From an uncultured bacterium (GTDB lineage Bacteria; Omnitrophota; Omnitrophia; Omnitrophales; CAZLUT01), in contig CAZLUT010000003.1 in the NCBI GenBank assembly GCA_964562805.1, forward strand, positions 6,707 to 70,706: a stretch of DNA of 64,000 nucleotides. The letters run 5' to 3'. Position 1 is the first letter of the stretch. The number at the start of each line of letters is the position of its first letter. The notes below the pieces were generated by a model, which was given only the letters and a program-made list of their open reading frames with translations, was not told where the DNA came from and did not search any database. Made by a program: the position numbers and the translations under genes. This document shows positions 8,631-60,321 of the stretch, piece by piece.

Positions 8631-8652
8631 TCTCAGACCTAAGATCTGAAAC
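8631..8652 (-). repeat. heptamer tandem array family A (sense-strand AGATCTNAG / + strand TCTNAGA units), 3 units
   Basis: tctcaga cctaaga tctgaaa immediately 5' of stop codon of hydrolase gene (8653) and upstream of lipoprotein start; sense strand carries TAG, TGA, TAA. Confidence 0.6.
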
Positions 8653-9483
8653 TTACAAGTATCGCTCAAGAAAGCTTCTCGCCTCTTCGATAACATTCTG
8701 ATTATCGGGCTCATTAAATACTTCATGATATAAACTTTCAAACTCTTTCTTAGTTTTTTCTTTAGCTTTGCATTTTTCAAACCATTTATAAATCGCCCCC
8801 TTATTAACGATCCTTTCATCCCCCGCGATCAAAACACATAAAGGACAATTAATGACTATTTGATTCATCACGGACTTTTGTATCTTCCTAATTTTCCGAA
8901 ATAAACCTAAAGTCATAGAATAACTCCTCAAGGGATCATCTAAATAAGCCTTAACTTTATTTTTATCATGGCACAAAAATGAATATTGAAGTGGTTTTGT
9001 AATTTTTTTATTAGGATAAATATATGAAATAATTAATAAAATTAATTGAACTAGGTGAGAACGGTCTTCCGGCATACCGAGAAAAGGCGCAGAGAGTAAG
9101 AGCGCTTTAAAAAGTTTGAGTTTCTTTTTTAAGATCATGAGAGCTAGCAGCCCACCAAAACTTTGCGCCACAACAGCAAAAGATCCTTCGCTCCAGCCAA
9201 GATACGTTAAAAAATATTCATAATCATTTATTATTTTTTCAGGATCGATTTCGTTTCTCTTACCGCCTGAATATCCGTGACCTCTTATATCGAGTGCCGC
9301 CCATTCGACATTTCCCTCAGGAAATATCCGGTCAGCTATGTCCGCATAATCTTCGGAATGTTCAAATAATCCGTGAAAAAAAAGGACTCGTTTATTTGAC
9401 TGAGCGCGTGATCTGCGATAAAAAAGCTCGGTCCCATCCTTCGCCCTAAAGGTGCCTGTGATATGTTTTTTTTCTTTTGTCAT
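8653..9483 (-). CDS. alpha/beta hydrolase, lysophospholipase / monoacylglycerol lipase-like
   Basis: HGLFEHS oxyanion region, GXSXG nucleophile elbow (AQSFGG), C-terminal cap typical of lysophospholipase L2-like enzymes. Confidence 0.65.
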   Translation of the reverse strand: MTKEKKHITGTFRAKDGTELFYRRSRAQSNKRVLFFHGLFEHSEDYADIADRIFPEGNVEWAALDIRGHGYSGGKRNEIDPEKIINDYEYFLTYLGWSEGSFAVVAQSFGGLLALMILKKKLKLFKALLLSAPFLGMPEDRSHLVQLILLIISYIYPNKKITKPLQYSFLCHDKNKVKAYLDDPLRSYSMTLGLFRKIRKIQKSVMNQIVINCPLCVLIAGDERIVNKGAIYKWFEKCKAKEKTKKEFESLYHEVFNEPDNQNVIEEARSFLERYL

Positions 9484-9493
9484 TTTTTCTCTC

Positions 9494-11314: not shown

Positions 11315-11354
11315 TTTTTATTTTCTGTCTATTAAAAATTAATACTCTACTAAC

Positions 11355-11396
11355 AAAAACTCCTGCGAAAGCCTTAACGCTCTTGCAGGAGTTTTG
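11355..11396 (-). terminator. rho-independent terminator, likely bidirectional
   Basis: AAAAACTCCTGC...GCAGGAGTTTTG: 7-11 bp GC-containing stem flanked by A5 and T4; 40 nt downstream of stop of 11436..12170. Confidence 0.6.
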
Positions 11397-11435
11397 TGGA
11401 TATCATTATAAGGATCTTCTACCTATTATGCGGAT

Positions 11436-12170: not shown

Positions 12171-12292
12171 ATAAATCCACCTTTTTTTTAATAACGACCA
12201 CTAATGAGTATTTCAATATTTAAACAAGACAAAGTATTTTGCCTTATTTTTAACACCTATATCAAGTTTTGTTTATATTTTTTTATTATTTA

Positions 12293-18979: not shown

Positions 18980-18984
18980 ATTAT

Positions 18985-21060: not shown

Positions 21061-21532
21061 GGGGTGAATTCTCCTTTAAAAATAGTTTGTACATCACTAA
21101 AGCATTTCCGCCGACCGGAATCCGTGCTTTTTCCTGGAATCCATTATCCTGACAAAGTTTTCCGGCTGCTTTCATATCTTCAGTAGCTCTAAAAACAATC
21201 TCCTGATAACCAACCTCCAAACAAAATTGTATCGCTTTTTGCATCAGTTTGTATCCAATGCGCTGTTTGCGATAATTGGGATTTACCATGATTCTCCGAA
21301 GCAAGGCGTTTCTTTCATCATCTTTTTTAACAGCCACAGTACCGACAACTTTATCGTTATCAACAGCTACAAAAAAAGCCTCTCCTAATCCTCCGTAATG
21401 ATCATGAAGAGAATTAAGATCATCCGCCGGGTAACTTTGGGTCGCTCCGGGGAATTCGCCTCCCATAACAGATTCGATAAGTTCTTTCGCGGGCTTTTCT
21501 TCGCCTTTACGAATCTTTCGAATCTCAATCAT
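21050..21532 (-). CDS. GNAT family N-acetyltransferase
   Basis: Acetyl-CoA binding motif A RRIMVNPNYRKQRIGYKLM and GNAT length. Confidence 0.7.
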   Translation of the reverse strand: MIEIRKIRKGEEKPAKELIESVMGGEFPGATQSYPADDLNSLHDHYGGLGEAFFVAVDNDKVVGTVAVKKDDERNALLRRIMVNPNYRKQRIGYKLMQKAIQFCLEVGYQEIVFRATEDMKAAGKLCQDNGFQEKARIPVGGNALVMYKLFLKENSPLAS

Positions 21533-21547
21533 GTTCTTCCCCCCTTA

Positions 21548-21772
21548 TTATTTCTGCTCTTCTTTTTTAGCTTCTTCGCCTGTTTTTTCAGCAGCAGCTT
21601 TTGTCTTTTTGGTTTTTAATTTTTGCGATTTAACTTTAGGTAAACCATAAACTGACTTGTCTTCTGACCAAGCCTCATTAGATTTGAGTTTCTTGATCCT
21701 TTCGTAACGCTTTAAAACATTCCGGTGACGTGAGCCAACTTTATCAACCCGCAAGCTGGAATGAATACTCAT
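21548..21772 (-). CDS. small basic protein of unknown function
   Basis: 74 aa, Lys/Arg-rich, no match to ribosomal S21/S20 patterns I can recall. Confidence 0.35.
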   Translation of the reverse strand: MSIHSSLRVDKVGSRHRNVLKRYERIKKLKSNEAWSEDKSVYGLPKVKSQKLKTKKTKAAAEKTGEEAKKEEQK

Positions 21773-21947
21773 GAAATTACCATCCTTTCTGAAAAGTGCT
21801 GATTCGGACTTGAATCGACTCGGATTCCTTAGTTGAATCAGTCTGTATTATACAGATGTCCCCTCGATAATCGATGAAAAAATTAACTATTAAGAAAAAA
21901 TTTTAAGGGGTAATCTGACTATTTTTAATCCGCCGCAGCACCTTAAT

Positions 21948-21990
21948 TTCTCAGATCTTAGATCTAGGATCTGAGATCTAAGTTTCAGAG
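21948..21990 (-). repeat. heptamer tandem array family A, about 6 units, overlapping stop codon of SPOR-like gene
   Basis: tctcaga tcttaga tctagga tctgaga tctaagt ttcagag; stops on both strands; TAG stop of 21978..22697 lies inside array. Confidence 0.6.
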
Positions 21991-22697
21991 GTAATTTTCC
22001 TAATATACGTCCCTTTATATTTACCCACTTCTTTAGCTGCCGCAAGCTCTTTATCAGCATCCTGCCGGCTTAAAAAGGGGCCTAAGACCACCATGTAATA
22101 TTTCCCACTCTTACGGTAAGATCCCTTTAAATTGCTCTTTAGAAGGCTCTCAACCTCGCGTTTAGCATAGTTTTGATTGGAAGTCGACATAAGCCGCGCC
22201 TCGTAGTATTTCTCAGGCTTTACAGTCTCTCCTTGAAGCGATACTTCCTCTTTCTTAGGGATGCTCACAGTCTCTTGTTTTTTTGTAAGATGCTCTTCCC
22301 TTTTTTTAGGAAAATAGGTCCCAAGCAAACTGCCCCCGCTCTTTCTGGGCTTCTCGCTGTTCGTTCTTATCTTGATCGAGGGGCTTTTCTCCTCTTTAGC
22401 CTGAACTCGTTTTTGAAATCCTAATGATTTTTCAGTTTTCCGGACTTGGGCAAGATTTGCCATTGATTCTACTTTGTAACGTTTGCCAAGCGACTCTTTC
22501 TCGATGGATTTTCCATGCTCAACTCCGATCGTAAAAATAACCACAAGAAGTATTAGGAAAATAAGTGTAACAAAGATGATCTTATCGATCGTCAGACGAA
22601 TCTCAAACTTCCCTTCAGACAAGGTTTCATCAAACCTTTTATCGGAAATATTTTTTCCGCGGGGCTTTAAACTTTCAAAAAGCTCGCCTTGTTTCAT
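21978..22697 (-). CDS. SPOR-like membrane protein
   Basis: Start set at ATG 22697 forming ATGA overlap with lepB stop (track start 22778 would overlap lepB by 85 nt); TM helix then K/E-rich region and C-terminal YYMVVLGPF...A.KEL SPOR-like segment. Confidence 0.5.
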   Translation of the reverse strand: MKQGELFESLKPRGKNISDKRFDETLSEGKFEIRLTIDKIIFVTLIFLILLVVIFTIGVEHGKSIEKESLGKRYKVESMANLAQVRKTEKSLGFQKRVQAKEEKSPSIKIRTNSEKPRKSGGSLLGTYFPKKREEHLTKKQETVSIPKKEEVSLQGETVKPEKYYEARLMSTSNQNYAKREVESLLKSNLKGSYRKSGKYYMVVLGPFLSRQDADKELAAAKEVGKYKGTYIRKITSET

Positions 22698-23278
22698 TTG
22701 ACAAGTCGGATACGTTTGGGCGGCCAATAAATCATAAAAGCCTTGCCGATTAATTCTTTTCTTTTTACAAACCCCCAATTACGGCTATCAGAACTTTGAG
22801 CGCTATTATCACCCAAAACAAAAAAGCTGTTCTCCGGCACTAAAATTTTCTTATCCTCTCCTCCGTACTCCCAGTCTTCCCGGTTGTAATAATAAAATTT
22901 TCTAAACACCGAATCTTCGGGGAAAGACTCACCATCAATATAAATTTTACCCTGTTTTATTTCAATCTCATCGCCCGGCAAACCTACGAGCCTTTTAATA
23001 AAATCTCTCTTCTTTCCGTCGCCCGGATAGCGAAAGACAATAATATCGCTCCTTTTAGGTTCGTGAAAATGATAGATAAATTTATTAACTAAAACCCGGT
23101 CATTTTCCATCAAAGTAGGGCGCATTGAACCGGTTGGAATTTTATATGCCTGAAAAAAGAAAGTCCGGATTATAAGCGCTAAAAGTATCGCTAAAAGTAT
23201 CGGTTCAATCCATTCTTTAATTAGATATTGCCATTTGGGATGTAATTTTAAGATCCATTGATGGTAAAACTTAAACAT
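22694..23278 (-). CDS. lepB: signal peptidase I
   Basis: Catalytic Ser box GSMRPTL, Lys box and GDNSAQSSDSRNWGFV C-terminal box. Confidence 0.85.
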   Translation of the reverse strand: MFKFYHQWILKLHPKWQYLIKEWIEPILLAILLALIIRTFFFQAYKIPTGSMRPTLMENDRVLVNKFIYHFHEPKRSDIIVFRYPGDGKKRDFIKRLVGLPGDEIEIKQGKIYIDGESFPEDSVFRKFYYYNREDWEYGGEDKKILVPENSFFVLGDNSAQSSDSRNWGFVKRKELIGKAFMIYWPPKRIRLVK

Positions 23279-23289
23279 TTTTTCTCCTG

Positions 23290-25074
23290 TTATTCATCTA
23301 CTCTCAAAACCGAAATAAATGCTTCCTGTGGTATATCAACTTTTCCGACCTTTTTCATCCTTTTTTTGCCGGCTTTTTGCTTTTCCCAAAGCTTACGTTT
23401 CCGGGTAATATCGCCGCCATAACATTTTGCCGTTACATCTTTAGAAAGAGCTCGAATACTGTCGCGGGCAATAATGCGGGAGCCGACTGCCGCCTGAATA
23501 ACAACTTCAAAAAGCTGCCTGGGTATCACATCCTTTAGCTTTTCAACTAAAGCACGGCCCCGTTCATACGCGTGCTCTTTATGCACAATACTTGAAAGCG
23601 CGTCAACCGGTTCACTATTAATTAATATATCCAAACGTGATAAGTCGGAAGCGCGAAATCCAATAAAATCATAATTCAAAGATCCATACCCGCGGGTTGC
23701 CGATTTAATTTTGTCGTAAAAATCCAAAACAACTTCACAAAATGGCATTTCATAAGTTAAGACGGCGCGTGTAGAATCTAAATATTCCGTATCCCGGTAA
23801 ATACCCCTTCTATCCTGGCAGAGCTTCATGATAGTTCCGATGTTTTCGGCCGGAATCAAAAGACTTGCCTCAATATAAGGCTCCTCAATGCGCTCGATCT
23901 TATCTTTTGTGGGCAAAAGGCTCGGATTTTCAAGCATTAAAATCTCCCCGTTAGTTTTTGTTACTCTGTAAACAACGCTGGGTGCTGTAATAATTAACTG
24001 GAGATTGAATTCGCGCTCCAAGCGTTCTTGTATGATTTCCATGTGTAAAAGCCCCAAAAATCCGCAGCGAAAACCAAACCCTAAAGACTGTGAAGTTTCA
24101 GCCTCATAAACAAAAGAGGAATCATTCAAACTTAGCTTTTCCAACGCATCCCTTAAAAGCGCGAAATCTTTCGCTGCGATTGGATACATTCCACAAAACA
24201 CCATCGGTTTTGCCTCTTTATAGCCGGGAAGCGGTTTTTTAGCCGGCATTTCTTTTAAAGTAACTGTATCCCCTATTTTTACGTCTTTCACATTCTTAAT
24301 ATTACAGGCAATAAACCCTACCAATCCTGCAGAAAGGCCTTTGACCGGCGTTGGCTGAGGAGCAAAAATACCAATCTCTTCTACTTCATATTCTGTCTTG
24401 TTATTCATCATTAGGATCTTGTCATGCAGCTTTATTTCCCCGTCCACCACCCTTATATAGACAACAACCCCTTTATAAGGGTCGTATTTTGAATCAAAAA
24501 TAAGCGCTTTGAGCGAAGATGCCTTATCGCCTTTAGGTGGAGGAATTTTTTCAATAATCGCGTCTAAAATTTGAAGCGAGCCCTCTCCTGTCTTAGAGCT
24601 TGTTGAAAGCACCTCCTCACCCGTAGTTCCCAAAATATTCTGAATCTCTTTTTTGGTTTTAGGAATATCAGCGTTAGGAAGGTCGATTTTAGTAATAACC
24701 GGGACCATCTCTAAATTTTTCTCCAAAGCCAGATAAAGATTCGACATGGTCTGGGCCTCGACACCTTGAGAGCCATCCACCAAAAGCAGCACTCCTTCAC
24801 AGGCTGCGAAACTTTTTGAAACTTCATAAGTGAAATCAACATGCCCGGGCGTATCGATCAAATTAAGAATATGACCTTTGTATTTAATCTGGACAGCGCG
24901 TGCTTTAATGGTAATACCTCTCTCACGCTCCAGATCCATATCATCCAAGAATTGCTCACGAAATTCCCGCTGGGTGATGGCATGGGTATCGAGAAGCATG
25001 CGATCGGCCAAGGTAGACTTACCATGATCAATATGCGCTGAGATAGAAAAATTACGTATTTTTTTAATATCCAT
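23290..25074 (-). CDS. lepA: elongation factor 4 (translational GTPase LepA)
   Basis: IRNFSISAHIDHGKSTLADR G1 motif, DTPGHVDF, NKIDL, LepA-specific C-terminal domain; full length about 594 aa. Confidence 0.95.
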   Translation of the reverse strand: MDIKKIRNFSISAHIDHGKSTLADRMLLDTHAITQREFREQFLDDMDLERERGITIKARAVQIKYKGHILNLIDTPGHVDFTYEVSKSFAACEGVLLLVDGSQGVEAQTMSNLYLALEKNLEMVPVITKIDLPNADIPKTKKEIQNILGTTGEEVLSTSSKTGEGSLQILDAIIEKIPPPKGDKASSLKALIFDSKYDPYKGVVVYIRVVDGEIKLHDKILMMNNKTEYEVEEIGIFAPQPTPVKGLSAGLVGFIACNIKNVKDVKIGDTVTLKEMPAKKPLPGYKEAKPMVFCGMYPIAAKDFALLRDALEKLSLNDSSFVYEAETSQSLGFGFRCGFLGLLHMEIIQERLEREFNLQLIITAPSVVYRVTKTNGEILMLENPSLLPTKDKIERIEEPYIEASLLIPAENIGTIMKLCQDRRGIYRDTEYLDSTRAVLTYEMPFCEVVLDFYDKIKSATRGYGSLNYDFIGFRASDLSRLDILINSEPVDALSSIVHKEHAYERGRALVEKLKDVIPRQLFEVVIQAAVGSRIIARDSIRALSKDVTAKCYGGDITRKRKLWEKQKAGKKRMKKVGKVDIPQEAFISVLRVDE

Positions 25075-25086
25075 TACTGCTTACAA

Positions 25087-25749
25087 CTACTTGATCCGGA
25101 GGCTTTGGATTGCTTTTTTTCTAGATTTAGCTCCAAAAATAAAGGTGCCTGCAACCAATACATCAGCACCTTGGCTAGCGCAAAGAGCACCTGTTTTAGC
25201 GTTAATTCCACCATCTACTGCAATAAAGCCTTTGAAACGCTTCTTTAATTCCGCGATTTTTTTTACCTGCTCCGGCATAAAAGCCTGACCTCCAAAACCC
25301 GGCTCAACTGTCATAACAAGCACCATATCAACATCTTTTAAATAAGGCAGGATAGCCTTGAGGGGCGTACGCGGTCTAAGGGATATACCTGGTTTTGCCC
25401 CTAGTTTACGAATTAATTTTAAAGTTTTCCTGACTTGTTTGGTCGCCTCGACATGAATCGTTAAATAATCAGATCCTGCTTTTATAAAATCCTTCACGTA
25501 CCGAATCGGTTCATCAATCATCAAATGAACGTCCATAGGAATTTTGGTGTAAGGTTTGATTTTTTTTACCACAACGGGGCCTATTGTTAGATTAGGGACA
25601 AAATGCCCGTCCATCACATCCACATGAACCCAGTCCGCCCCTTTAGCCGCTACGTCCTTAATTTCCGAACCTAACTTTCCAAAATCAGCCGAAAGAATAC
25701 TTGGTGCAACAATATTTTTTTTCTTATTCTTTTTCATTTTTCCTCTCAT
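25087..25749 (-). CDS. rpe: ribulose-phosphate 3-epimerase
   Basis: PSILSADF, VHVDVMDGHFVPNLT, DGGI motifs of the Rpe TIM barrel. Confidence 0.9.
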   Translation of the reverse strand: MRGKMKKNKKKNIVAPSILSADFGKLGSEIKDVAAKGADWVHVDVMDGHFVPNLTIGPVVVKKIKPYTKIPMDVHLMIDEPIRYVKDFIKAGSDYLTIHVEATKQVRKTLKLIRKLGAKPGISLRPRTPLKAILPYLKDVDMVLVMTVEPGFGGQAFMPEQVKKIAELKKRFKGFIAVDGGINAKTGALCASQGADVLVAGTFIFGAKSRKKAIQSLRIK

Positions 25750-25760
25750 TATTCACTTCT

Positions 25761-27029
25761 TCAAAAAGTGAAATTTCTCCTTATTTCCTTCTCCTCTTTA
25801 TCACTCAACGGCCCAATTAACGCTAAATTTAAATGTTCTGTTAAAAATATTTTCTTCGCCATTTGTCTCACATCTTCGGTCGTCACTTTTTCAATTTGGC
25901 GCTTAATTGCTTCTCTTTTAAGGAAGCTGTCCAAATGAAGATAGCGCTCACCCACCCAAATCATATGGTCAAGCGTATCTTCAAGCATTAAAAAAAGCTG
26001 GCCCACATAATAATCTTTAGCTCGCCTCAGTTCCTCGGCGGAAACTCCGGTCTTAGCAATTTTTTTTAATTCTTTTAGCGAAACTTCGATCGCGAGCTTC
26101 GCCTTTTTTGGATTGACTCCGGCTGAAACGGTGAAAGAGCCTGTATCCAAATAAGCCGCCACTCCGGAATGAATGCTATAGGCCAGCCCCCGCTTTTCTC
26201 TTACCTCATGAAAAAGGCGGCTTGACATATTAGCTCCTAAAATAACATGCAGGAGTCCTAGTTTATAGCGTTCCGGGTCTGTTTTGGATAAGGCGTGAAG
26301 CCCAATTACAAATTGACATTGTTCAATATCCCGCTTCACAAAATTAAATTTTGGTTCATTTTGATATGCGTCCGCTTTTTCAAAAATTGAACTTTCAGAT
26401 TTAAAAAACTTTTTGAAACGTTTCCGAACCAAGCGGAGAATTTGCGTGTGGCTCACATTTCCAGCCGCGGTGATTAAAAAATTGGGGGCATTATAAAACT
26501 TATTGTGGAACGCATTCAGCTCGCTTCGTGAGAGCCTGGAAACGGTTTCCATTGATCCCGCGATATTTCGGCCAAGCGGCTGTCGCTGCCAGAGAAGTTC
26601 GCTCATCAAATCCTGCACATGGCTTGAGGGTACATCCCGATACATTTTGATCTCTTCTAAAATAACCCCTCTTTCCCTTTGCATGTCGGAATTCTTAAAA
26701 AGCGGCAGGAGCGTCAGGTCAGCTAAAACATCAAAAACCTGATCCAAGTGCTTCGGTAAAATTTTCGTGAAATAGCAGGTTGACTCTTCTCCCGTAAAGG
26801 CGTTGAGCATCCCGCCCTTCCCTTCAACAATTTCCTTAATTTGGCGCATTGAATAATTTCGGGTTCCCTTAAAAACCAGATGTTCGATAAAATGTGAAGT
26901 TCCCGATAGTTTTCGGGATTCATACCGGCCGCCCACCTTAGCCCAAATACCCAAAGCCACAGAATCTCTTCCGGGCAAATTAATGGTAAGAACTCTCGCC
27001 CCATTCTTTAGATTGGTTGTCCGGTACAT
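25761..27029 (-). CDS. M16 (pitrilysin) family zinc peptidase
   Basis: Inverted zinc motif HFIEH (HxxEH) followed by downstream Glu region; about 420 aa two-domain fold. Confidence 0.8.
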   Translation of the reverse strand: MYRTTNLKNGARVLTINLPGRDSVALGIWAKVGGRYESRKLSGTSHFIEHLVFKGTRNYSMRQIKEIVEGKGGMLNAFTGEESTCYFTKILPKHLDQVFDVLADLTLLPLFKNSDMQRERGVILEEIKMYRDVPSSHVQDLMSELLWQRQPLGRNIAGSMETVSRLSRSELNAFHNKFYNAPNFLITAAGNVSHTQILRLVRKRFKKFFKSESSIFEKADAYQNEPKFNFVKRDIEQCQFVIGLHALSKTDPERYKLGLLHVILGANMSSRLFHEVREKRGLAYSIHSGVAAYLDTGSFTVSAGVNPKKAKLAIEVSLKELKKIAKTGVSAEELRRAKDYYVGQLFLMLEDTLDHMIWVGERYLHLDSFLKREAIKRQIEKVTTEDVRQMAKKIFLTEHLNLALIGPLSDKEEKEIRRNFTF

Positions 27030-27449
27030 TTACGATTTCCTCTTTAAATCCAAATAATTTTGCAAAAGTATCTGAGCCGCTAAAGAATCCACCCGTTGTT
27101 TCCGCTTGGCACGGCTTTTGCCGCTCTCCCTCAAATACATTTCAGCTTCTTTTGTGGTTAGCCTCTCATCAATTAATTCAAAATTTGTATCAGGAAATTG
27201 AGATCTGAGCCGCTTAACTTTTTCTTCCGTTTTTTGGGCTGCAATACCGACTTTATCTTCTAAAGTTTTAGGGTACCCGATGAGCACTACTTCCGGCTGA
27301 ATTTCGCCCAAAAGTTTTTTTAGTTCATTTAAAAAATAATCTTCAGATTTATATTCAATCATCGGTAAGGCGTGAGCCATTAAGCCAAGTTCATCGCTTT
27401 TAGCGATGCCGATTCGTTTTGTACCGAGATCTAAAGCGATCACTTTCAA
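27030..27449 (-). CDS. ruvX: putative pre-16S rRNA nuclease / Holliday junction resolvase-like YqgF
   Basis: VIALDLGTKRIGIAKSD RNase H-fold N-terminus; 139 aa. Confidence 0.85.
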   Translation of the reverse strand: MKVIALDLGTKRIGIAKSDELGLMAHALPMIEYKSEDYFLNELKKLLGEIQPEVVLIGYPKTLEDKVGIAAQKTEEKVKRLRSQFPDTNFELIDERLTTKEAEMYLRESGKSRAKRKQRVDSLAAQILLQNYLDLKRKS

Positions 27450-28243
27450 TTGTGTAATCCACTTTTTAGGCTTCTTAAAAATCGAGCTGTTTTTTCAATA
27501 CCTCCCGCTGACGGGCCATTTTTCTTCATTTCTTTAATGAGGGCAGTGCCTACAATTACCCCGCTCGAAACACGGGAAGCTTGTCTTACTTTTTTCTTAT
27601 CGGAAACCCCAAATCCAATCACAATTGGTTTTTTAGTGTGCGTGCGGATTGTTTTTAAATTTTGCTCCAAATCCCGGTCTAAATTTTGTCTGAGTCCCGT
27701 AACGCCCCGCGAGGAAACGTAATAAATAAATTCATCGGTTTTGGAACCAACCATCCGTATCCGTTCGGGAGTACTCGTCGGTGCCAGGAAATAAATTAAA
27801 GAAAGACCGGCTTTCTTTGCTTTTTTATGAAAACTTTCACCCTCCTCCGGCGGAAGATCAGGAATTAAAAATCCATCAAATCCGGATCTCTTTAATTCTC
27901 CTATTACTTTTACCTCACCCTGTTTTTGAATTGGATTATAGTAAGAGAAAAAAAGTACCGGCACTTGAAACCCTTTCTTTCTGAGTTTCAAAAGTAAATT
28001 GCAGGCATCTTTAAAAGTAACTTTGTTTTGTAGCGCCCGGCAGGAGGCGTCCTGAATAACGGGACCATCCGCCAAAGGATCTGAAAAAGGAAAACCCAAT
28101 TCGATTAAATCAATTTTTTCTTTCTCTGCCAAAAGGAGCATTTTTTCGGTATGGGCGAGACTTGTAAAACCCAGGGTAAAATAAATTGAAAAAATTTTCT
28201 TCTTTTTGTCTCTAAATAATTTTTTAAGCCTTTTTTCTTTCAT
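27446..28243 (-). CDS. trpA: tryptophan synthase alpha chain
   Basis: TrpA TIM-barrel blocks (LIELGFPFSDPLADGP, GFGV); ATGA overlap with ruvX. Confidence 0.9.
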   Translation of the reverse strand: MKEKRLKKLFRDKKKKIFSIYFTLGFTSLAHTEKMLLLAEKEKIDLIELGFPFSDPLADGPVIQDASCRALQNKVTFKDACNLLLKLRKKGFQVPVLFFSYYNPIQKQGEVKVIGELKRSGFDGFLIPDLPPEEGESFHKKAKKAGLSLIYFLAPTSTPERIRMVGSKTDEFIYYVSSRGVTGLRQNLDRDLEQNLKTIRTHTKKPIVIGFGVSDKKKVRQASRVSSGVIVGTALIKEMKKNGPSAGGIEKTARFLRSLKSGLHN

Positions 28244-28293
28244 TTTTCTATCTCTTTAAGAATTTTTTAATCTGTCCCTTTAGGGACTCCTTA

Positions 28294-28321
28294 GCCACTA
28301 ATCACTAACGACTAACCACTA
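28294..28321 (-). repeat. heptamer tandem array family B (sense-strand TAGTGRN / + strand NNCACTA), 4 units
   Basis: gccacta atcacta acgacta accacta; last unit contains trpB TAG stop; followed by small hairpin GTCCCTTTAGGGAC and trpA RBS. Confidence 0.6.
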
Positions 28322-29569
28322 TTTAAGTACCTGGCGAATTGTATCCATATCCTTGTCTCCGCGGCCCGAAAGACAAATAACAATCGATTCTGTTTTTTTC
28401 ATTTTCTTAGCAAGCTTTACAGCAAGACTTACCGCATGCGCTGACTCCAAGGCCGGAATAATCCCTTCTTCATATGATAATTTTTTAAATCCGTCCAAGG
28501 CCTCTTTATCCGTAACACCAAAATAAGAAGCTCGTTTTACTTGGTGTAAATACGCATGTTCCGGCCCTACTGAAGGATAGTCAAGTCCCGCAGAAATCGA
28601 ATGAGCTAATTTGATTTGACCTTCTGAATTTTGAAGTACTCGGCTTTTCATTCCGTGAAGGACACCCGTCTCACCTTTTAAAAGTGACAAGCCGTGTTTT
28701 CCGGTATTCGCCCCAAGACCCGCGGCCTCAGCGCCAAAAAATTTCACTCGTGTGTTTAAGAAGGGGTAAAAAAATCCGATTGAATTACTTCCTCCTCCAA
28801 CGCACGCAACGAGCGCCGTGGGCAAACTCCCTTTCAGCTTTAGAAACTGCCTCTTGGTTTCAAGTCCGATCACCGTTTGAAAATCTCTTACAATCATCGG
28901 ATAAGGATGAGGTCCCACGACACTTCCGAGCAAATAATGAGTAGTTTCAGATGTGGCAACCCAATCCCGAATGGCATCATTCGTAGCATCTTTCAGAGTT
29001 TCAGCACCTGAGGTGACCGGAATAACTCGCGCTCCTAAAAGTTTCATCTTATAAACATTAAGGGCCTGCCGCTCAATATCCTTGGCACCCATATAAACGT
29101 CACATTCAAGACTAAAAAGCCGGGCTGCTGTCGCTGCGGCCACACCATGCTGACCAGCTCCGGTCTCAGCTACGACCCTCTTCTTTCCAAGTTTTTTGGC
29201 AAGAAGCGCCTGGGCTACCGTGTTATTAATTTTATGAGCGCCCGTGTGAAGCAGATCTTCTCTTTTTAAGAAAATTTGGGCTCCACCCGTCGAATGTGTA
29301 AGATTACCCGCAAACATCAAAGGTGTAGGGCGTCCCGCGTAAGTTTCCAAAACTTGAGTCAGCTCTTTTTGAAACTTTTTATCCTTTTTTAGTTTCCGGT
29401 ATTCCTTCTCGAGCTCCAGAAGAGCTTTCATAAGGGTCTCAGGCACAAACTTCCCCCCAAAACCGTCAAATTTTCCTTTGCTATCCGGCAAATTGTATTT
29501 TTTATTTCTTTTAGCCATTCTTTTAACCTGTATGCGTATATTTATTAGTTGAAGTTGAGAGTCTATCAT
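28319..29569 (-). CDS. trpB: tryptophan synthase beta chain
   Basis: PLP-enzyme blocks [17 protein letters not shown]; true start may be the internal ATG at 29518 ([22 protein letters not shown]) rather than 29569. Confidence 0.9.
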
Positions 29570-29602
29570 ACGCTTAACTCATGGGCAATATGACAAAAAC
29601 GA

Positions 29603-29648
29603 TGAATAGTGAATAGTGGTTAGCGTGTAGTGGTTAGTGTAGAATAAG
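29603..29648 (+). repeat. heptamer tandem array family B in + orientation, 5-6 units
   Basis: tagtgaa tagtggt tagcgtg tagtggt tagtgta gaataag ending at the AAGGA SD of the + strand MtfA-like gene; inverted relative to array 28294-28321 so the two flank trpB. Confidence 0.6.
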
Positions 29649-29651
29649 GAC

Positions 29652-30476
29652 ATGTTTATCTACATATCCTTATTATTCGCGGCCTTTGTCTTGCTCTATA
29701 TTTTGACTGGCAAGCTAACGCGTCTCATTAAACGCACGAAACTGCTAAATGCTCCTTTTTCGTTTGAATGGGAAAAAATTTTAGAAAAAAATATTTTCTT
29801 TTACCGCCACCTGCCTCAACACTTTAAAAAAGAGCTTAAGGGAGACATTCAAATTTTTTTAAACGAAAAAAGGTTTAAGGGCTGCGGAGGTCTCAAAATT
29901 ACCGATGAAATCCGCCTGACAATAGCAGCCGAGGCCTGCATCCTTCTTTTAAACCGGAAATCTAAATACTATCCCCATCTATCCACTATTTTTGTATATC
30001 CTCACATCTATGTTGGAGGTGAAAACCGACTCTCGTCCACCGGTATTCCAATCGAAAATAAAAGTGCTCGAGCCGGTGAATCCTGGCATCGAGGCCCTCT
30101 CGTTTTAGCTTGGGATGACGTAAAAAATTCATCAAATCAAAACACTAAAGGGCATAATGTTGTTCTTCACGAATTCGCCCACCAGCTGGATCAGGAAGAT
30201 GGCGAAGCCGACGGCGCCCCCATCCTGCCCAAAACAATGAGATATGCCGAATGGACTCGAGTGTTTAAAAAGGAATACAACCATTTACTAGACGATGTTA
30301 AATTTCAAAGAAAAAATGTGCTGGATTACTACGGGGGGACAAATCCGGCAGAATTTTTTGCAGTTGCTACCGAAACTTTTTTTACCAAACCACAGGAATT
30401 AAACCGGGATGAGCCGGAGCTCTACCAGGAACTCAAAACGTACTACGCCTTAGACCCGCTCAAATGGATCGATTAG
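29652..30476 (+). CDS. MtfA-like zinc metallopeptidase (M90 family)
   Basis: HEFAHQLD HExxH motif with downstream acidic region; size and N-terminal TM consistent with MtfA/DgsA-anti-repressor family. Confidence 0.65.
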   Translation: MFIYISLLFAAFVLLYILTGKLTRLIKRTKLLNAPFSFEWEKILEKNIFFYRHLPQHFKKELKGDIQIFLNEKRFKGCGGLKITDEIRLTIAAEACILLLNRKSKYYPHLSTIFVYPHIYVGGENRLSSTGIPIENKSARAGESWHRGPLVLAWDDVKNSSNQNTKGHNVVLHEFAHQLDQEDGEADGAPILPKTMRYAEWTRVFKKEYNHLLDDVKFQRKNVLDYYGGTNPAEFFAVATETFFTKPQELNRDEPELYQELKTYYALDPLKWID

Positions 30477-30489
30477 GTTTTTAACGGTT

Positions 30490-30684
30490 TTAAAATTCCG
30501 GATATTCAGGTGTATCCCCTGAATATGAAGCGTTGGTATCAGCGTTCAAAAATTCCATCTGGCCGCCGTAATTGCCACCATCTGAAAATTCACCTTCATC
30601 ATTAGGGGTTGGCCCCATACAAGCAGACCCTACCATAGCTAAACTCAACAAAAGCAGAATAAGAACTAACAATCTTTTAATCAT
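30490..30684 (-). CDS. small acidic putative lipoprotein
   Basis: 64 aa, signal peptide ending VGSAC (lipobox-like), acidic mature part. Confidence 0.35.
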   Translation of the reverse strand: MIKRLLVLILLLLSLAMVGSACMGPTPNDEGEFSDGGNYGGQMEFLNADTNASYSGDTPEYPEF

Positions 30685-30814
30685 TTTTATCCTTTCCTGG
30701 ATTAGTAAAAAACAGCCAAATTATACCTTAAATACCGCAACTTCCGACTTTTAAGTTATAAATTTTTATATAAAATGGGTTAACACGCTATAATTGTTTA
30801 AACATCTAAAAAAT

Positions 30815-32237: not shown

Positions 32238-32248
32238 AGGTCTACCCT

Positions 32249-34976: not shown

Positions 34977-34988
34977 ACTGTCAAATTT

Positions 34989-36404: not shown

Positions 36405-36433
36405 CTTCGTTCTATTCACTATCCACTAATCAC
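36405..36433 (-). repeat. heptamer tandem array family B, 3-4 units
   Basis: ttcgttc tattcac tatccac taatcac between M48 stop (36441) and next start; sense strand GTGATTA GTGGATA GTGAATA with three TAGs in three frames. Confidence 0.6.
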
Positions 36434-36440
36434 GGAAATT

Positions 36441-37568: not shown

Positions 37569-37577
37569 AAATCCTAG

Positions 37578-38318: not shown

Positions 38319-38354
38319 CTCTCAGATCTTAGATCTTCGCCCTCAGATCTATCT
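38319..38354 (-). repeat. heptamer tandem array family A, 5 units, spanning recN stop to hydrolase start
   Basis: tctcaga tcttaga tcttcgc cctcaga tctatct; sense strand ends GATCTGAGAG-ATG. Confidence 0.6.
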
Positions 38355-40007
38355 CCTCAATATTTCCTTCGCGTGCTTTAATGATGTCTCCGTGAGATCT
38401 TTGCCCGAAAGCATCTTCGCTATCTCTTGAATTCTAGGGTCGCCTTCCAGTTTTTCAAACTGCACCTGGGTTTTGCCGCCAGCTACCCGTTTAATCACGT
38501 TCCAATGACAAGCCGCGTGCGAGGCAACAGGAGCCAAGTGAGTAATCGAAATAACCGCGTGGTTCAGGGCAACTTCTTCCAGTTTCCGCCCGATCACAGG
38601 GCCAAGACGGCCGCCAATACCCGAATCAATTTCATCAAAAACCAATGTGCTCACCGGCTGAACTTTAGAAAAGCATTTTTTAATCGCCAGCTGAATACGG
38701 GAGGCTTCACCGCCTGATGCTACTTTTGCGAGTGGTTTCAATGCCTCGCCCTTATTAGCAGAGAGAAGAAACTCGATTCTGTCTTTACCTCTCGAATGAA
38801 AATCCGTCGGCTCTATAAGCACCTTAAAATGTGCTTGCTTCATTTCGAGACTTTCCAGCTCTTCGGTCACCATTTTTTCTATTTTAGAAGCCGCCTCAGT
38901 TCTTATTCGACTGATTCCTGCGGCTTCCTGTGACATCGTGCTCTCGATTTTCTCGATTTCTTCATCAAATTTTTTTAAATTTTTATCGCTTGATTCCAAC
39001 AGGGTAAAACGGTTTTTTGCTTCATCAAAAAACCGCAGGATATCTTCGAGGGTTTTACCGTATTTTTTCTTTAAACTATCCAGCAAATCAATCCTTTCCA
39101 TTACGGCTTCAAGCCGCTCCGGGTCGTGCTCGAGAGACTCACCATAATCATCTAAGGATCTCGACAGCTCTCCAATTTTAATTTCGAGTGATTCAGCTTC
39201 CTCTTGTAACCTTTTCAGGTTTTTACTCGGATCAATTTTGGTGAGCATCGTAAAAAGCCGGCTGATTTGGCCGCTCCCTGAAAGCAGTGAATTTTCATCA
39301 TCGGATAATTTTTGGGCACATTCCCGGTAAAGATTCCCCAACTTTTCAGCGCTGTTTAATCTGATCTTAAGTTCTTCGAGCCCCTCATCTTTTTCCGGAT
39401 TAATGCGGGCTGCTTCAATTTCTTTAATTTGATACTGAAGCAAATCCATCTCTCTTTCCTTCTGAGTTAAAGAATCTATCAAAATTTGCTTCTCAGCCAG
39501 CAGCTCGACTCGATGCTCATATAATTTTTTAAAAGATTCTATTTTTTTCTGGAGCCCCGCGAACATATCGAGAAGAAGTGCCTGTTCGACCGTATCATAA
39601 AGACTTTCGCTTTCCCTTTGGCCAAAAATATCAACTAGCCGGGGAGCTATCTGCTTTAACTGTGACGCTGTTGAGAGAACACCATTTAGGAAGCTTCGGG
39701 TTTTAGAGGTTCCTTCAGCCGACCTTTTAATAATAACGAGACCCTCTTCGGGGGTAAGATTTTTTTCTTTCAGCTCTTTTTCCAGGAAAGATTTTTCTTC
39801 AATTTGAAAAATAGCTTCAACCGATAAGGTTTTCCCGGGGCGAAGCCACGTCGACTCAAGCCGATTTCCTAAGGCAAAGCCTAGAGCTTCAATAACGATA
39901 GATTTGCCGGCTCCCGTTTCACCCGTGAGCACATTGAGTCCTTTTGAAAAATCAAGCAACGCCTCTTCTATCAGCGCAAAATTCTTAACCTTTAACTGGA
40001 CTAGCAT
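38349..40007 (-). CDS. recN: DNA repair protein RecN
   Basis: SMC-like N-terminal Walker A GETGAGKS, long coiled coil, C-terminal signature/Walker B; 552 aa. Confidence 0.9.
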   Translation of the reverse strand: MLVQLKVKNFALIEEALLDFSKGLNVLTGETGAGKSIVIEALGFALGNRLESTWLRPGKTLSVEAIFQIEEKSFLEKELKEKNLTPEEGLVIIKRSAEGTSKTRSFLNGVLSTASQLKQIAPRLVDIFGQRESESLYDTVEQALLLDMFAGLQKKIESFKKLYEHRVELLAEKQILIDSLTQKEREMDLLQYQIKEIEAARINPEKDEGLEELKIRLNSAEKLGNLYRECAQKLSDDENSLLSGSGQISRLFTMLTKIDPSKNLKRLQEEAESLEIKIGELSRSLDDYGESLEHDPERLEAVMERIDLLDSLKKKYGKTLEDILRFFDEAKNRFTLLESSDKNLKKFDEEIEKIESTMSQEAAGISRIRTEAASKIEKMVTEELESLEMKQAHFKVLIEPTDFHSRGKDRIEFLLSANKGEALKPLAKVASGGEASRIQLAIKKCFSKVQPVSTLVFDEIDSGIGGRLGPVIGRKLEEVALNHAVISITHLAPVASHAACHWNVIKRVAGGKTQVQFEKLEGDPRIQEIAKMLSGKDLTETSLKHAKEILRR

Positions 40008-50128: not shown

Positions 50129-50129
50129 T

Positions 50130-55225: not shown

Positions 55226-55290
55226 CTATTATGTATTCGCCTTTTATCCTTTTAGTCTCTCGGTTTTCAACTCTGGGGATCCTTGCCCCT

Positions 55291-55325
55291 CACTAGTTAC
55301 TAACCACTAGCCACTAACCACTTTC
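55291..55325 (-). repeat. heptamer tandem array family B, 5 units, 3 nt after ftsW stop
   Basis: cactagt tactaac cactagc cactaac cactttc; sense strand GTGGTTA GTGGCTA GTGGTTA GTAACTA GTG. Confidence 0.6.
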
Positions 55326-55328
55326 TGG

Positions 55329-57694: not shown

Positions 57695-57728
57695 TTCCCT
57701 CAGATCTCAGATCTTAGTTCTAATCCCT
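57695..57728 (-). repeat. heptamer tandem array family A, 4 units, filling mraY-murD intergenic
   Basis: cctcaga tctcaga tcttagt tctaatc; sense strand TAG, TAA, TGA, TGA cover all three frames then GAGGGAA-ATG. Confidence 0.6.
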
Positions 57729-58817
57729 TTATCTTAATTTTAAGGTGCTTAATCCAATTAAGGCTAAAATAAGCGCGATGATCCAAAGCCTAATAGTCAC
57801 TTTTGTGTCGGGCCACCCCTTCAGCTGTAAATGGTGGTGGAATGGCGACATTAGAAAAATTCGTTTTCCGGTTAGCTTGAATGAGATGATTTGAATAATA
57901 ACCGAGAACGCTTCCCAGGCAAAAACACCTCCTATAATTAAAAGAACCAGTTCCTGTTTTACAAAAATTACGATAGCGCCCAAAGCACCTCCCAACGCCA
58001 AGGAGCCCGTATCTCCCATAAAAACACTGGCGGGAGGGGCGTTCCACCACAAAAAACCAATCCCAGCGCCGATTAAGGAGCCGGCAATTACCGCGAGTTC
58101 ACCTGTGCTTTCGATATACTGAATATTTAAATAATCGGCAAAAACAAAATTTCCTGTTAAATATGCTATCACTCCAAACGCCGCGGTCGCAAAGCAAAAG
58201 CACCCGATTGCCAATCCATCCATTCCATCCGTTAAATTGATCGCGTTTGACGTGCCTACCATCACACAGATAACAAGAGGAATATAAAAAATCCCCAAAA
58301 CCCAAACAACATTTTTAAAAAAGGGGACAGTAATTTTGGTATCAAAAGTCGGGTCCAGATATAGATAAACTGCAAAAATAGCAGCTAATGAAAGTTGTCC
58401 TATTAATTTTGTTCGAGAACTGATTCCTTTTGTATCTTGAAAACGTATTTTTAAATAGTCATCCACAAACCCTAAGATTCCATACCAAAGAATCACAATG
58501 ATCACGAGGATAGAAAAGCGGTTATGAAAATTCATCCACAAAAAATTTGAGAACAAAACACTTAAAATAATCAATACACCCCCCATCGTTGGGGTTTCTT
58601 TTTTATCTTTGTAGAAGCCGTGTATTTCTTCGGCATGAGGTCTTTTGGTGGAACCAACCGCTCGAATACGTTTTAAACAGCGGATAATCCAGGGGCCAAA
58701 AATAACACAGATTAAAAAAGCAGTCACGGCGGCCATAGCAGAACGAAAAGTAATATAGCGAAATACGTTGAAAAATATGTGTTCGTCGCCTAATGGGTAT
58801 AAAAATTCATAAAACAT
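57729..58817 (-). CDS. mraY: phospho-N-acetylmuramoyl-pentapeptide transferase
   Basis: 10-TM MraY with conserved DD and HHH cytoplasmic loop motifs. Confidence 0.9.
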   Translation of the reverse strand: MFYEFLYPLGDEHIFFNVFRYITFRSAMAAVTAFLICVIFGPWIIRCLKRIRAVGSTKRPHAEEIHGFYKDKKETPTMGGVLIILSVLFSNFLWMNFHNRFSILVIIVILWYGILGFVDDYLKIRFQDTKGISSRTKLIGQLSLAAIFAVYLYLDPTFDTKITVPFFKNVVWVLGIFYIPLVICVMVGTSNAINLTDGMDGLAIGCFCFATAAFGVIAYLTGNFVFADYLNIQYIESTGELAVIAGSLIGAGIGFLWWNAPPASVFMGDTGSLALGGALGAIVIFVKQELVLLIIGGVFAWEAFSVIIQIISFKLTGKRIFLMSPFHHHLQLKGWPDTKVTIRLWIIALILALIGLSTLKLR

Positions 58818-58818
58818 A

Positions 58819-60321
58819 CTATAAGACCTCAGACTTCAGACCGGAGACTTCAGACTTAGAAGCAATCCAGCTGTTAACAACTTTTTTATCAGAAAAATAT
58901 TTTTTTTCGGTGCCAATGATTTGATAATCCTCATGCCCTTTGCCTAAAATCAAAAGAATATCGTGTGGGCGAGCATCTTCCAAGGCTTTTTTAATCGCTT
59001 CTTCCCTGTCCGGAATCCGACAATAGGGCTTAGAAAGATTAGCGGTAATATTATCCAAAATTTGTTCCGGATTTTCGGTTCGCGGATTATCTGAAGTAAC
59101 AAAAATCTTATCCGAAAAATTCTGGACCGCCTCAGCCATCAGAGGGCGTTTGGTTTTATCGCGATCACCTCCGCAGCCAAAAATAGTTATAACTTTTCCT
59201 TTTTCTCCAATTTTTATTTCAGAGACTGAACGTAAGACATTCGTAATCGCATCCGGCGTATGGGCATAATCAACAAAGACCGTAAATGGCAATTCGGCAC
59301 CGACCCTCTCCATGCGCCCCGGAATCCCCTGAAACTCAGTCAAACGTGGGATAACTTCTTCCGGCTGAATATCCTCGAGAGAGACGGCCGTTAAAGCTGC
59401 TACTAAATTAGAAACATTGTAATTACAGACAAGCGAGGAGGTAATTGAATAAACCGCACCTCTAAAATGCCATTTAAAACTCACACCATCAAGGTTTGAA
59501 ATGATATCAGAAGCCCACGAGTCAGCCTCCTCTCTTATCGAATAAGTCACCACTTCTCGCCCTTCGGCTCTCAGGTCTTGAATCAATTTTCTTCCATATT
59601 CATCATCTTGATTAATGATACATTTTTCCGGCGTATGCTCCGAAAAAAGCTTTTTTTTGGAATTAAAATAATCGTCAAGTGTCGAATGATAATCTAAATG
59701 GTCCTGTGTCAAATTAGTGAATATTGCTGTTTCAAATTTGTAATCTGAAAGTCGTTTTTGTTTTAAGGCGTGAGAAGAGACTTCCAACACGCCGTATCGG
59801 ATATTTCCTTTAACCGCCAAGTCCATTAACCGCGTCATCTCCATTATCCCCGGCGTTGTATTTGAAGCACTGAATCTCTTATCTTTAATGCGATACTCAA
59901 CAGTCCCAATTAAAAAAGAATTATTTTCCGGGTTAAGTAAAAAATCGATCAAATAAGAAACGGTTGTTTTGCCGTTGGTGCCCGTAATCCCGACCAATTT
60001 TATTTTTTTTGCCGGATCACCGTAAAATTGTTTTACAATTTTGGGAAATATTTCTTTGGTGTCATTACACTGAATCCAAGTAATGTCCCGAGAAGGCGTT
60101 CGAGGAACGGTCTCACAGAGAATTGCCCGAGCTCCCTTTTCAATCGCCTCCTCGATAAACTGATGGCCGTCCCGCACCTCACCCCGTAAAGCCACGTAAA
60201 GACAGCCGGGCTTCGTCTCTCTTGAATCTGAGGTTAAAAAACTAAAGGCTTGATCCGGATTCCCCCAAATTTTTAAATCAGAATAACATTTAAAAAATTC
60301 CGTTATTTTTTTCACAACCAT
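58819..60321 (-). CDS. murE: UDP-N-acetylmuramoyl-L-alanyl-D-glutamate--2,6-diaminopimelate ligase
   Basis: GITGTNGKTT P-loop, DNPR motif; C-terminal 14 aa (ASKSEVSGLKSEVL) are encoded by a heptamer array. Confidence 0.9.
   Translation of the reverse strand: MVVKKITEFFKCYSDLKIWGNPDQAFSFLTSDSRETKPGCLYVALRGEVRDGHQFIEEAIEKGARAILCETVPRTPSRDITWIQCNDTKEIFPKIVKQFYGDPAKKIKLVGITGTNGKTTVSYLIDFLLNPENNSFLIGTVEYRIKDKRFSASNTTPGIMEMTRLMDLAVKGNIRYGVLEVSSHALKQKRLSDYKFETAIFTNLTQDHLDYHSTLDDYFNSKKKLFSEHTPEKCIINQDDEYGRKLIQDLRAEGREVVTYSIREEADSWASDIISNLDGVSFKWHFRGAVYSITSSLVCNYNVSNLVAALTAVSLEDIQPEEVIPRLTEFQGIPGRMERVGAELPFTVFVDYAHTPDAITNVLRSVSEIKIGEKGKVITIFGCGGDRDKTKRPLMAEAVQNFSDKIFVTSDNPRTENPEQILDNITANLSKPYCRIPDREEAIKKALEDARPHDILLILGKGHEDYQIIGTEKKYFSDKKVVNSWIASKSEVSGLKSEVL
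58821..58862 (-). repeat. heptamer tandem array (family A variant AGACYTN), 5-6 units, forming murE 3' end
   Basis: agacctc agacttc agaccgg agacttc agactta; on sense strand TAA/TGA/TGA/TGA/TAG fall in all three frames, murE frame ends at the last TAG. Confidence 0.55.

Follow-up and report, generated by a model that had tools for sequence, protein, structure and literature searches.

Why a bacterium that leaves so few nucleotides between its genes should fill some of them with tandem heptanucleotides is the question raised by a 64,000-nt stretch of contig CAZLUT010000003.1 (the window). Short arrays of imperfect 7-nt units lie there at the junctions between cistrons, and it has to be explained why the period is seven, why each genome has families of its own, and why the arrays are pressed on stop codons. 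A sequence-only reading of the window had claimed nine such arrays, and all nine are present at the positions given below. They belong to a known class of bacterial intergenic heptanucleotide repeats, the short tandemly repeated repetitive (STRR) or long simple-sequence repeat (LSSR) type; the phylum and the units are new, the arrangement is not. On balance, we consider it probable that the arrays are mostly non-essential, fast-evolving repeats of this type, selfish or near-neutral, whose effects on gene spacing and expression are incidental.

A1, 8618-8652, minus strand: family A (TCTNAGA/AGATCTN), about five degenerate units, directly 3' of the stop codon of a hydrolase gene (8653-9483).
A2, 21948-21990, minus strand: family A, about 5-6 units, overlapping the TAG stop (21978-21980) of a SPOR-domain gene; a small basic protein gene follows 175 nt downstream.
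A3, 38319-38354, minus strand: family A, overlapping the recN stop (38349-38351) and occupying the entire 30-nt spacer to the ATG at 38318.
A4, 57695-57728, minus strand: family A, occupying the entire 34-nt mraY-murD spacer; the sense strand reads AGGGATT AGAACTA AGATCTG AGATCTG AGGGAA.
A5, 58821-58862, minus strand: a separate unit variant of GTCTGAA type (five AAGTCTG-type units), coding for the C-terminal tail of MurE (...SKSEVSGLKSEVL*) and ending 1 nt before the mraY ATG.
B1, 28291-28321, minus strand: family B, four TAGTGRN units, the first of which contains the trpB stop codon TAG (28319-28321).
B2, 36405-36435, minus strand: family B, about 3-4 units, between the stop codon of an M48 peptidase gene (36441-36443) and the probable ATG (36404) of a TPR/peptidase-MA gene.
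B3, 55291-55325, minus strand: family B, about five units, starting 3 nt past the ftsW stop in an ftsW-murG spacer of 103 nt.
B4, 29603-29648, plus strand: family B, about six units, in the 82-nt divergent region between trpB and a peptidase-M90/MtfA-like gene, ending 3 nt before the ATG at 29652.

Tandem Repeats Finder (TRF) reported period 7 for six of the nine arrays at a score of at least 30; the arrays contain 3-6 imperfect units with matches of 74-88%. It had been proposed in the sequence-only reading that a search for the heptamers would tell whether they are confined to gene junctions. This search was run on the window with two-unit probes, allowing at most two mismatches. The family A probe (AGATCTNAGATCTNAG) gave 20 matches compared with 0.42 in shuffled sequences, all of them confined to 8618-8650, 21946-21982, 38317-38339 and 57699-57724, and the family B probe (TAGTGRNTAGTGRNTAG) gave 11 matches compared with 0.10 in shuffles, all confined to 28291-28321, 29607-29637, 36412-36435 and 55293-55323. 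Neither probe matched within a gene, and all eight loci are non-coding. When the window was scanned for period-7 self-similarity without reference to the families, four strict regions were found, all non-coding (0.1 regions in shuffles), together with 13 lax regions, seven of which were non-coding (2.6 regions in shuffles). Such enrichment was not seen at the neighbouring periods in the same scan.

By TRF, scan and probes, head-to-tail 7-nt units in at least three copies occur here beyond chance. The probe counts and the period-7 scan bear out the claim that the arrays are a non-random, junction-specific feature and form genuine sequence families: A and B each recur at four loci within 64 kb, and to these are added the A5 variant and a further family, C, described below. 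The arrays are restricted to non-coding DNA, except for a single coding array, A5, which forms a dispensable C-terminal tail. As independent ENA assemblies of other samples (L002 and L175; the contigs and loci compared are numbered L001-L175) reproduce A4, A5, B1 and B4 without a single base difference, the arrays are not assembly artefacts.

Within each family some positions are fixed (AGATC in A, TAGTG in B) and the others vary. A sense-strand 12-mer, CTAAGATCTGAG, is exactly shared by A2, A3 and A4, and occurs with two mismatches in A1. The family B arrays can be aligned in register over about 33 nt, TAGTG being invariant and the last two positions free. Family C was found on the same contig past the right end of the window, in the udg-ispG (gcpE) spacer (L001 248-395, equivalent to about 69923-70074 in window numbering), where a CACAAAT-type array is accompanied by an inverted ATTTGTG-type array about 70 nt away. 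For this inverted pair a long hairpin is predicted (-45 kcal/mol, z -3.1). In three minus-strand spacers (12199-12211, 11400-11412 and 7780-7800) there are remnants of one or 1.5 units, similar to family B (TTAGTGGTCGTTA) or to family A (GAAGATCCTTA, ATAGATCTCTAAC); none is significant singly, and they could be decayed arrays or seeds. Two ideas about the families were tried and rejected. A GATC/BglII explanation for family A (Dam/SeqA-like clusters or restriction avoidance) finds GATC at 0.94 and AGATCT at 1.06 of the expected frequency, and a mobile element with conserved flanks is contradicted by the alignments, which show likeness only within the repeat units.

The arrays stand in a window of 40.8% G+C in which the genes are extremely tightly packed: 94.5% is coding (a lepB-like ORF, or open reading frame, being counted as coding) and 5.5% non-coding, with about 2.9 kb of spacers between selected ORFs in total. 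Nearly every gene is on the minus strand. The stretch is also contained in a 98.3-kb JGI metagenome contig. Protein family scans identified the dcw cluster (murE, mraY, murD, ftsW, murG and onward), trpB-trpA, recN, lepA, pcrA and glycine-cleavage genes; a small basic protein of the Chlamydiae/Verrucomicrobia type is also encoded. Among the matches listed, the nearest named homologues of MraY, MurD and TrpB all come from metagenome-assembled genomes of Candidatus Omnitrophota/Omnitrophica, and judged by these proteins the host is an uncultivated Candidatus Omnitrophota bacterium. Some gene boundaries in the window call for comment. The lepB-like ORF (signal peptidase I, 22694-23278) overlaps by 85 nt the 5' end of the longest ORF of the SPOR-domain gene (21978-22778), which has a TTG start at 22778; the real start is probably further downstream. 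The gene to which ORF 62951-63937 belongs continues past the window edge.

The sequence-only reading had described the arrays as putting stop codons in all three sense frames and as running directly into the next Shine-Dalgarno sequence or start codon. Three-frame stops were found in A4, B1, B2, B3 and B4, that is in five of the nine, and not in the remaining four: a single frame contains stops in A1 and two frames do so in A2 and in A3, and A5 is translated. Where they occur they are a matter of arithmetic, since any stop-containing 7-mer repeated at least three times produces them. Similarly, A3, A4, A5, B2 and B4 do abut the next Shine-Dalgarno sequence or start, which is not the case for A2, B1 and B3, where 175, 50 and 65 nt, respectively, intervene. 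A more consistent regularity is found at the other end. All eight arrays lying between co-directional genes begin on the upstream stop codon or within 7 nt of it, and this holds even in four spacers that are much longer than the array (A1, A2, B1 and B3). The sense strand that had been ascribed to family A is not assignable, because the unit is palindromic. In family B, all four arrays take the form (UAG-N4)4-6 when read in the sense of the downstream gene, and the two that flank trpB, B1 and B4, are indeed inverted relative to each other. It also proved correct that A5 encodes the last 12-14 or so residues of MurE, beyond the conserved C-terminus: the tail adds about 12 residues past the conserved end (...EWAR in relatives).

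The arrays differ in their predicted folding. A strong self-complementary hairpin is predicted for A2 (-20.6 kcal/mol, z -3.4); that of A3 is weaker (z -2.6). A1 holds a small 7-bp hairpin whose fold is not significant (z -1.2). A1, A4, A5 and all family B arrays folded no better than shuffled sequences, and B2 is unstructured. Small hairpins were noted next to two family B arrays:

28274-28287, minus strand: small hairpin GUCCC-UAAA-GGGAC, 6 nt downstream of B1, without a U tract.
55275-55289, minus strand: small hairpin GGGG-CAAGGAU-CCCC, directly downstream of B3, without a U tract.

Intrinsic terminators were considered and rejected, as no terminator-like site was found at the scanned arrays and these two hairpins have no U tract. 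Terminator and promoter consensus scans gave no excess over shuffles and no hit at A2, A3, B1, B2 or B4 (scanned region 21500-38500), and no T tract is present in the sequences of A1, A4, A5 and B3. The window contains no Rfam match at the gathering score and no tRNA or tmRNA.

To follow the arrays in relatives, as the sequence-only reading had suggested, orthologous junctions were compared. A scan of metagenomes with MurD gave distant relatives (at most 54% identity); nearer ones were obtained by protein searches with MraY and TrpB. The closest relative found, L167 (MraY 80% identical, same G+C), has arrays at both comparable dcw junctions, built from other heptamers. Its mraY-murD spacer reads AGGGGAC AGGGGAG AGGTGAT AGGGGAT (AGGGGAN, about 4-5 units), and its MurE tail is encoded by four CGAGTCA units. 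L168 (MraY 74%) has a MurE tail of three (T/G)AAAACT units; its ftsW and murG overlap by 4 nt where the window has B3. In L168 and L170 the mraY-murD spacer measures 42-43 nt and contains no array. MurE of L170 and L171 ends 9-12 codons earlier than that of the window, and at the compared dcw junctions these two loci have no arrays. L173 and L174 (TrpB 75-78% identical) are syntenic with the window from recN to the small basic protein gene. Neither has arrays at the A3 and B1 sites, where the junctions are tight (a 14-nt spacer in L173 at the junction orthologous to A3; trpB and trpA 5 nt apart or overlapping in L173 and L174), and L173 has none at the A2 site. L174 has an array of its own, of TCCGTNN units, at another junction, and a weaker TCCGTNN-like run, seen by eye only, at the A2 site after the stop codon of the SPOR-domain gene. 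The arrays of the relatives are located as follows:

L167, 1749-1781 and 2874-2907: CGAGTCA and AGGGGAN units, at junctions orthologous to those of the window arrays.
L168, 9742-9764: (T/G)AAAACT units, at the junction orthologous to A5.
L174, 3792-3825 and about 7733-7760: TCCGTNN sites, the second by eye only.

In the distant Omnitrophota (MurD 38-54% identical, among the matches listed) the dcw junctions measured from -58 to +10 nt, with 0-7 nt between mraY and murD, and had no arrays. Arrays are thus present at both compared dcw junctions in L167, and more distant relatives mostly have none, those at 74-78% identity having mostly abutting genes at the junctions that carry arrays in the window. 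The distribution among lineages is sporadic, and both sequence and length change at orthologous sites (different units in L167; mostly no arrays in L168, L170, L171, L173, L174 and the distant Omnitrophota). Judged from these loci, the arrays are lineage-specific, each genome has its own families, and an array can persist at a junction while its unit is replaced. Turnover is fast: the nearest relative has its junctions filled with different units, and in relatives only a little further away there are no arrays. Translational decoupling, which had been among the proposed roles, would fit these relatives, whose genes abut at the same junctions.

Two observations concern gene content at these loci. 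No murF lies between murE and mraY (junction 58817-58821) in the window, L167, L168 or L170; in the distant Omnitrophota loci an ORF of about 466-473 aa, of murF size and not annotated, is found between the two genes. The window has a gene for a SUI1/YciH-type translation initiation factor homologue (96 aa, 31878-32168), about where L173 has a Rieske-domain gene.

Within the sampled population the arrays are stable. No change of unit number was detected at A4, A5, B1 and B4 across the near-identical contigs L002, L175 and L164-L166, a comparison between samples that is shallow, with one extra assembly (L002 or L175) per array set. The suggestion that the arrays might be hypervariable spacers arising by slipped-strand mispairing found no support: the units are imperfect, and none of these four arrays differs between samples, in which trpA does differ by a 12-nt indel. 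This indel (GGGATTTGGAGC, at about 27664-27675) is in frame and separates the window from the ENA assembly L175, in which B1 and B4 are identical to those of the window.

The surroundings of B4 differ from those of the other arrays in orientation. The only clear plus-strand genes of the window, encoding the peptidase-M90/MtfA-like protein and a TPR protein (29652-31888), replace a 211-aa co-directional gene that lies upstream of trpB in the syntenic L173. B4 stands exactly at the boundary of this rearrangement, and the SUI1/YciH-type gene adjoins the plus-strand island. The longest trpB ORF (28319-29569) codes for 416 aa, nearly all homologues having about 372-412 aa and mostly 390-401, and the match to the TrpB model begins at residue 32. 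Translation of trpB therefore probably begins 15-25 codons further in, and the untranslated region that follows B4 would then be longer.

How far such arrays occur beyond this lineage was surveyed in 160 dcw loci (L003-L162; 2.16 Mb) from metagenomes and named genomes of many phyla. Period 7 was the commonest short tandem period, with 115 arrays as against 39, 41 and 58 for periods 6, 8 and 9, respectively. Seventy-one of the 115 (62%) lie mostly in the approximately 7% of the sequence that is outside long ORFs, and 49 (43%) have an inverted partner within 250 nt. Of 51 arrays in roomy spacers between co-directional genes, 17 begin no more than 10 nt from the upstream stop codon, compared with 5 that lie within 10 nt of the start codon. 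The unit differs in every lineage, and many arrays are situated exactly at the mraY-murD or murD-ftsW junction. The surveyed loci include those of cultured Chryseobacterium, Flavobacterium, Petrimonas and Polaribacter; among cultured Chryseobacterium and Flavobacterium, native arrays are present in L112, L117, L129 and L159. Examples are:

L047, 2813-2873; L050, 1828-1888 and 8590-8689; L064, 2015-2119: arrays in surveyed dcw loci.
L023, 5860-5968 and 7338-7427; L101, 5708-5779; L112, 12785-14572: arrays in surveyed dcw loci.
L129, 12625-12675; L162, 8038-8173: arrays in surveyed dcw loci.

The arrangement had been regarded as unlike anything in described genomes. In fact, short intergenic heptamer arrays have been described before (PMC4679880, PMC4692102, PMC2700814 and the cyanobacterial STRR sequences), although our literature search found no report of heptamer repeats for Omnitrophota. 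About 170 sets of 2-6 TAACTGA units, almost all intergenic, are present in a Beggiatoaceae genome, and TAACTGA sets occur also in some cyanobacteria and Bacteroidetes (MacGregor 2015, PMC4679880). They are mostly located just upstream of start codons, some overlapping the end of the upstream ORF, and in forward orientation they carry stop codons, which restricts their possible sites (PMC4679880). The window arrays resemble them in having 2-6 tandem 7-nt units that are sometimes broken by related 7-mers, in being almost all intergenic with one unit at many loci, in their stop-bearing units, in overlapping the upstream ORF end in some cases, in the lack of predicted secondary structure in family B, and in the absence of a common function among the downstream genes. 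At the start codon the picture is mixed: A3, A4, A5, B2 and B4 end a few nucleotides from it, as many TAACTGA sets do, and A2, B1 and B3 end 50-175 nt short of it and abut the stop codon. They differ in the units themselves (TCTNAGA, TAGTGRN, GTCTGAA and CACAAAT), and are therefore not members of the TAACTGA family but of the same kind only. They also differ in that one genome has several families, that the arrays hug the upstream stop rather than the start, that family A is palindromic and foldable, and that the host phylum is new in the literature searched.

A second group for comparison consists of the GGGAATC repeats of Xanthomonas and the GGGGAYT repeats of Nostoc, for which inverted pairs, operon-internal sites and changes of sequence and length between related species were reported (Rehm et al. 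2015, PMC4692102). As cited in PMC4679880 and PMC4692102, Mrazek et al. (2007) observed that in most genomes no unit of long simple-sequence repeats is as abundant as the heptamer, and put forward polymerase slippage as a hypothesis for this excess; PMC4692102 also cites the three heptanucleotide repeats of Calothrix, which are the STRR, a repeat type of heterocystous cyanobacteria. In Geobacter metallireducens, families of four GGACCGG and five MTYCTGA units have been described (PMC2700814), and according to a preprint heptamer repeats affect reporter expression in Nostoc (bioRxiv 10.1101/2022.06.06.494920). The window arrays share with the STRR, Mrazek and Rehm repeats the 7-nt unit, the intergenic enrichment, the presence of several families per genome (three in Calothrix), the inverted pairs, the position inside operons (pecE-pecF in Nostoc), the occupation of the same gene pair in related species with extensive change of sequence and length, and the sporadic phylogeny. 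In contrast, many of the published arrays have more units (up to 26) and fewer imperfections, and those of Xanthomonas and Nostoc are G-rich and form G-quadruplexes, to which the window arrays are not prone; here, 3-6 degenerate units fill nearly whole spacers of a very compact genome.

On the explanation that we favour, strand slippage within the short non-coding stretches where cistrons meet would duplicate 7-base units. These would then be copied or homogenised between the arrays of one genome, which would yield genome-specific families; those observed here are A (TCTNAGA), B (TAGTGRN), the GTCTGAA variant and CACAAAT. Because a 7-nt period breaks the reading frame and the units carry stops, arrays survive only outside ORFs, the exception being an array that is tolerated as a C-terminal tail, as in MurE. 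The arrays would be co-transcribed within polycistronic mRNAs, and junctions that abut or overlap in relatives would become untranslated spacers of 30-100 nt. Stop-start coupling would be removed, leaving the downstream gene to rely on its own ribosome-binding site. To this family A would contribute a hairpin, and the (UAG-N4)n tract contributed by family B would be unstructured.

Several points weigh against repeats that are merely selfish or near-neutral. Local slippage alone cannot explain the shared unit and the exact 12-mer, so that the copying step had to be postulated. The division into invariant (AGATC; TAGTG) and free positions looks like motif constraint. A neutral model does not predict that arrays should be pressed on the upstream stop where the spacer is long, as they are, and their presence at two junctions shared by the window and L167 could reflect function. 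We also count it on this side that the host statistics rest on about 79 kb of one genome (approximately 3%) rather than on the genome as a whole.

The apparent constraint on single positions would suit an RNA-binding function. The arrays might be cis-acting RNA platforms for an oligomeric protein that binds one motif per subunit at 7-nt spacing and controls termination, initiation at the next cistron or mRNA stability, for which HutP and TRAP (binding GAG/UAG triplets) are precedents. In site I of HutP the UAG motifs at U498, U505 and U512 have a period of 7, and their A and G are specifically recognised (PMC2425495). Like the sites in the hut and trp leaders of Bacillus subtilis, with tandem NAG triplets in single-stranded RNA, family B offers a TAG every 7 nt in a tract predicted to be unstructured, on the sense strand in four of four cases; the HutP hexamer takes up three motifs per face (PMC2425495). 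A NAG-N4 reading is possible for the A, A5 and L167 arrays as well, positions are fixed or free within each family, trpB is flanked by two B arrays, and S1, Csp or CsrA was proposed by MacGregor as the binder of TAACTGA (PMC4679880). The likeness to HutP and TRAP sites is one of spacing only, a lead and not a membership: the window arrays lack a terminator/antiterminator context, and they stand at unrelated junctions such as ftsW-murG and that of the peptidase gene. Moreover, the unit changes between close relatives at the same junction, which would require rapid change of specificity or several proteins; AG is absent from family C (CACAAAT) and from the units of L168 and L174, and its presence somewhere in a 7-mer is in any case not unlikely by chance; the downstream genes share no function; and the scanned window proteins and Pfam tables (about 3% of the genome) contained no HutP, TRAP, CsrA or Hfq gene. 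By analogy with known systems such a platform is conceivable, and we regard it as rather unlikely. Contingency loci, in which slipped-strand changes of unit number tune the neighbouring genes as do the 7-bp repeats upstream of hmw1A in Haemophilus influenzae, would resemble the arrays in unit length and intergenic site (the hmw1A/hmw2A heptamers), and the lengths of orthologous repeats do vary between Xanthomonas species (PMC4692102). However, 3-6 imperfect units are a poor substrate for slippage, the four arrays that could be compared do not differ between samples that are distinguished by a coding indel, and the neighbours are housekeeping genes (dcw, trp, recN), which makes this possibility hardly credible.

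The shared sequence could also have been spread by transposition. REP and REPIN sequences are short intergenic palindromes mobilised by RAYT proteins, often found just after stop codons inside operons, as singlets or inverted doublets, in genome-specific families with fast turnover. If the arrays were miniature mobile elements of this or the MITE (miniature inverted-repeat transposable element) kind, copied in trans by a transposase, the periodicity would be a property of the element. The exact 12-mer core shared by several intergenic loci, the hairpins of A2, A3 and the family C pair, the genome-specific and rapidly replaced families, the inverted partners of 49 of 115 period-7 arrays in other phyla, and relatives that lack arrays at the same junctions, as insertion would give, all agree with this. 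But a REP sequence has a defined length and defined ends and is not built of tandem heptamers, whereas length and ends vary here from locus to locus, with neither conserved termini nor target-site duplications; family B consists of direct repeats that form no hairpin, the folding of A1 and A4 does not exceed that of shuffles, the family scans and Pfam tables, in which most genes of the 79 kb were covered, gave neither a RAYT (Y1 transposase) nor any other transposase, and the orthologous L167 arrays with their different units look like evolution in place. Mobile elements are in our judgement quite improbable. Still less probable, to a degree that we would not build on it, is the leading idea of the sequence-only reading, that the arrays are stop modules or translational insulators selected to halt ribosomes that read through or have shifted frame, and to uncouple cistrons. 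It is suggested by the all-frame stops of five arrays, by the position at or beside the upstream stop, and by the coupled junctions of relatives where the window has arrays. Yet in four of the nine arrays at least one frame is free of stops, a protein tail is translated from A5 and from the corresponding arrays of L167 and L168, and the AGGGGAN units of L167 and family C have few stops or none; any AT-rich spacer supplies stops without periodicity, and for a stop-containing 7-mer the property is arithmetic, as was noted for TAACTGA (PMC4679880).

Read as STRR/LSSR-type repeats, the window arrays are a further example, in the little-studied Omnitrophota, of a repeat class known since 1990, in a setting where very compact operons make it easy for arrays to be placed against stop and start codons. 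The graded series of relatives, in which the junction is kept and the unit replaced, bears on the choice between a selected motif and a mutational bias, and the dcw survey points to period-7 arrays and heptamer-periodic hairpins as a common feature of the junctions between cistrons in many phyla, cultured Bacteroidota included. It is a doubtful but more general proposal that heptamer arrays and inverted pairs act as a kind of operon punctuation, as sites for a fast-co-evolving oligomeric nucleic-acid-binding factor with a 7-nt register that sets the relative expression of cistrons. If this were true, it would explain the dominance of period 7 at dcw junctions across phyla, the genome-specific families, and the persistence of arrays at a junction despite replacement of the unit.

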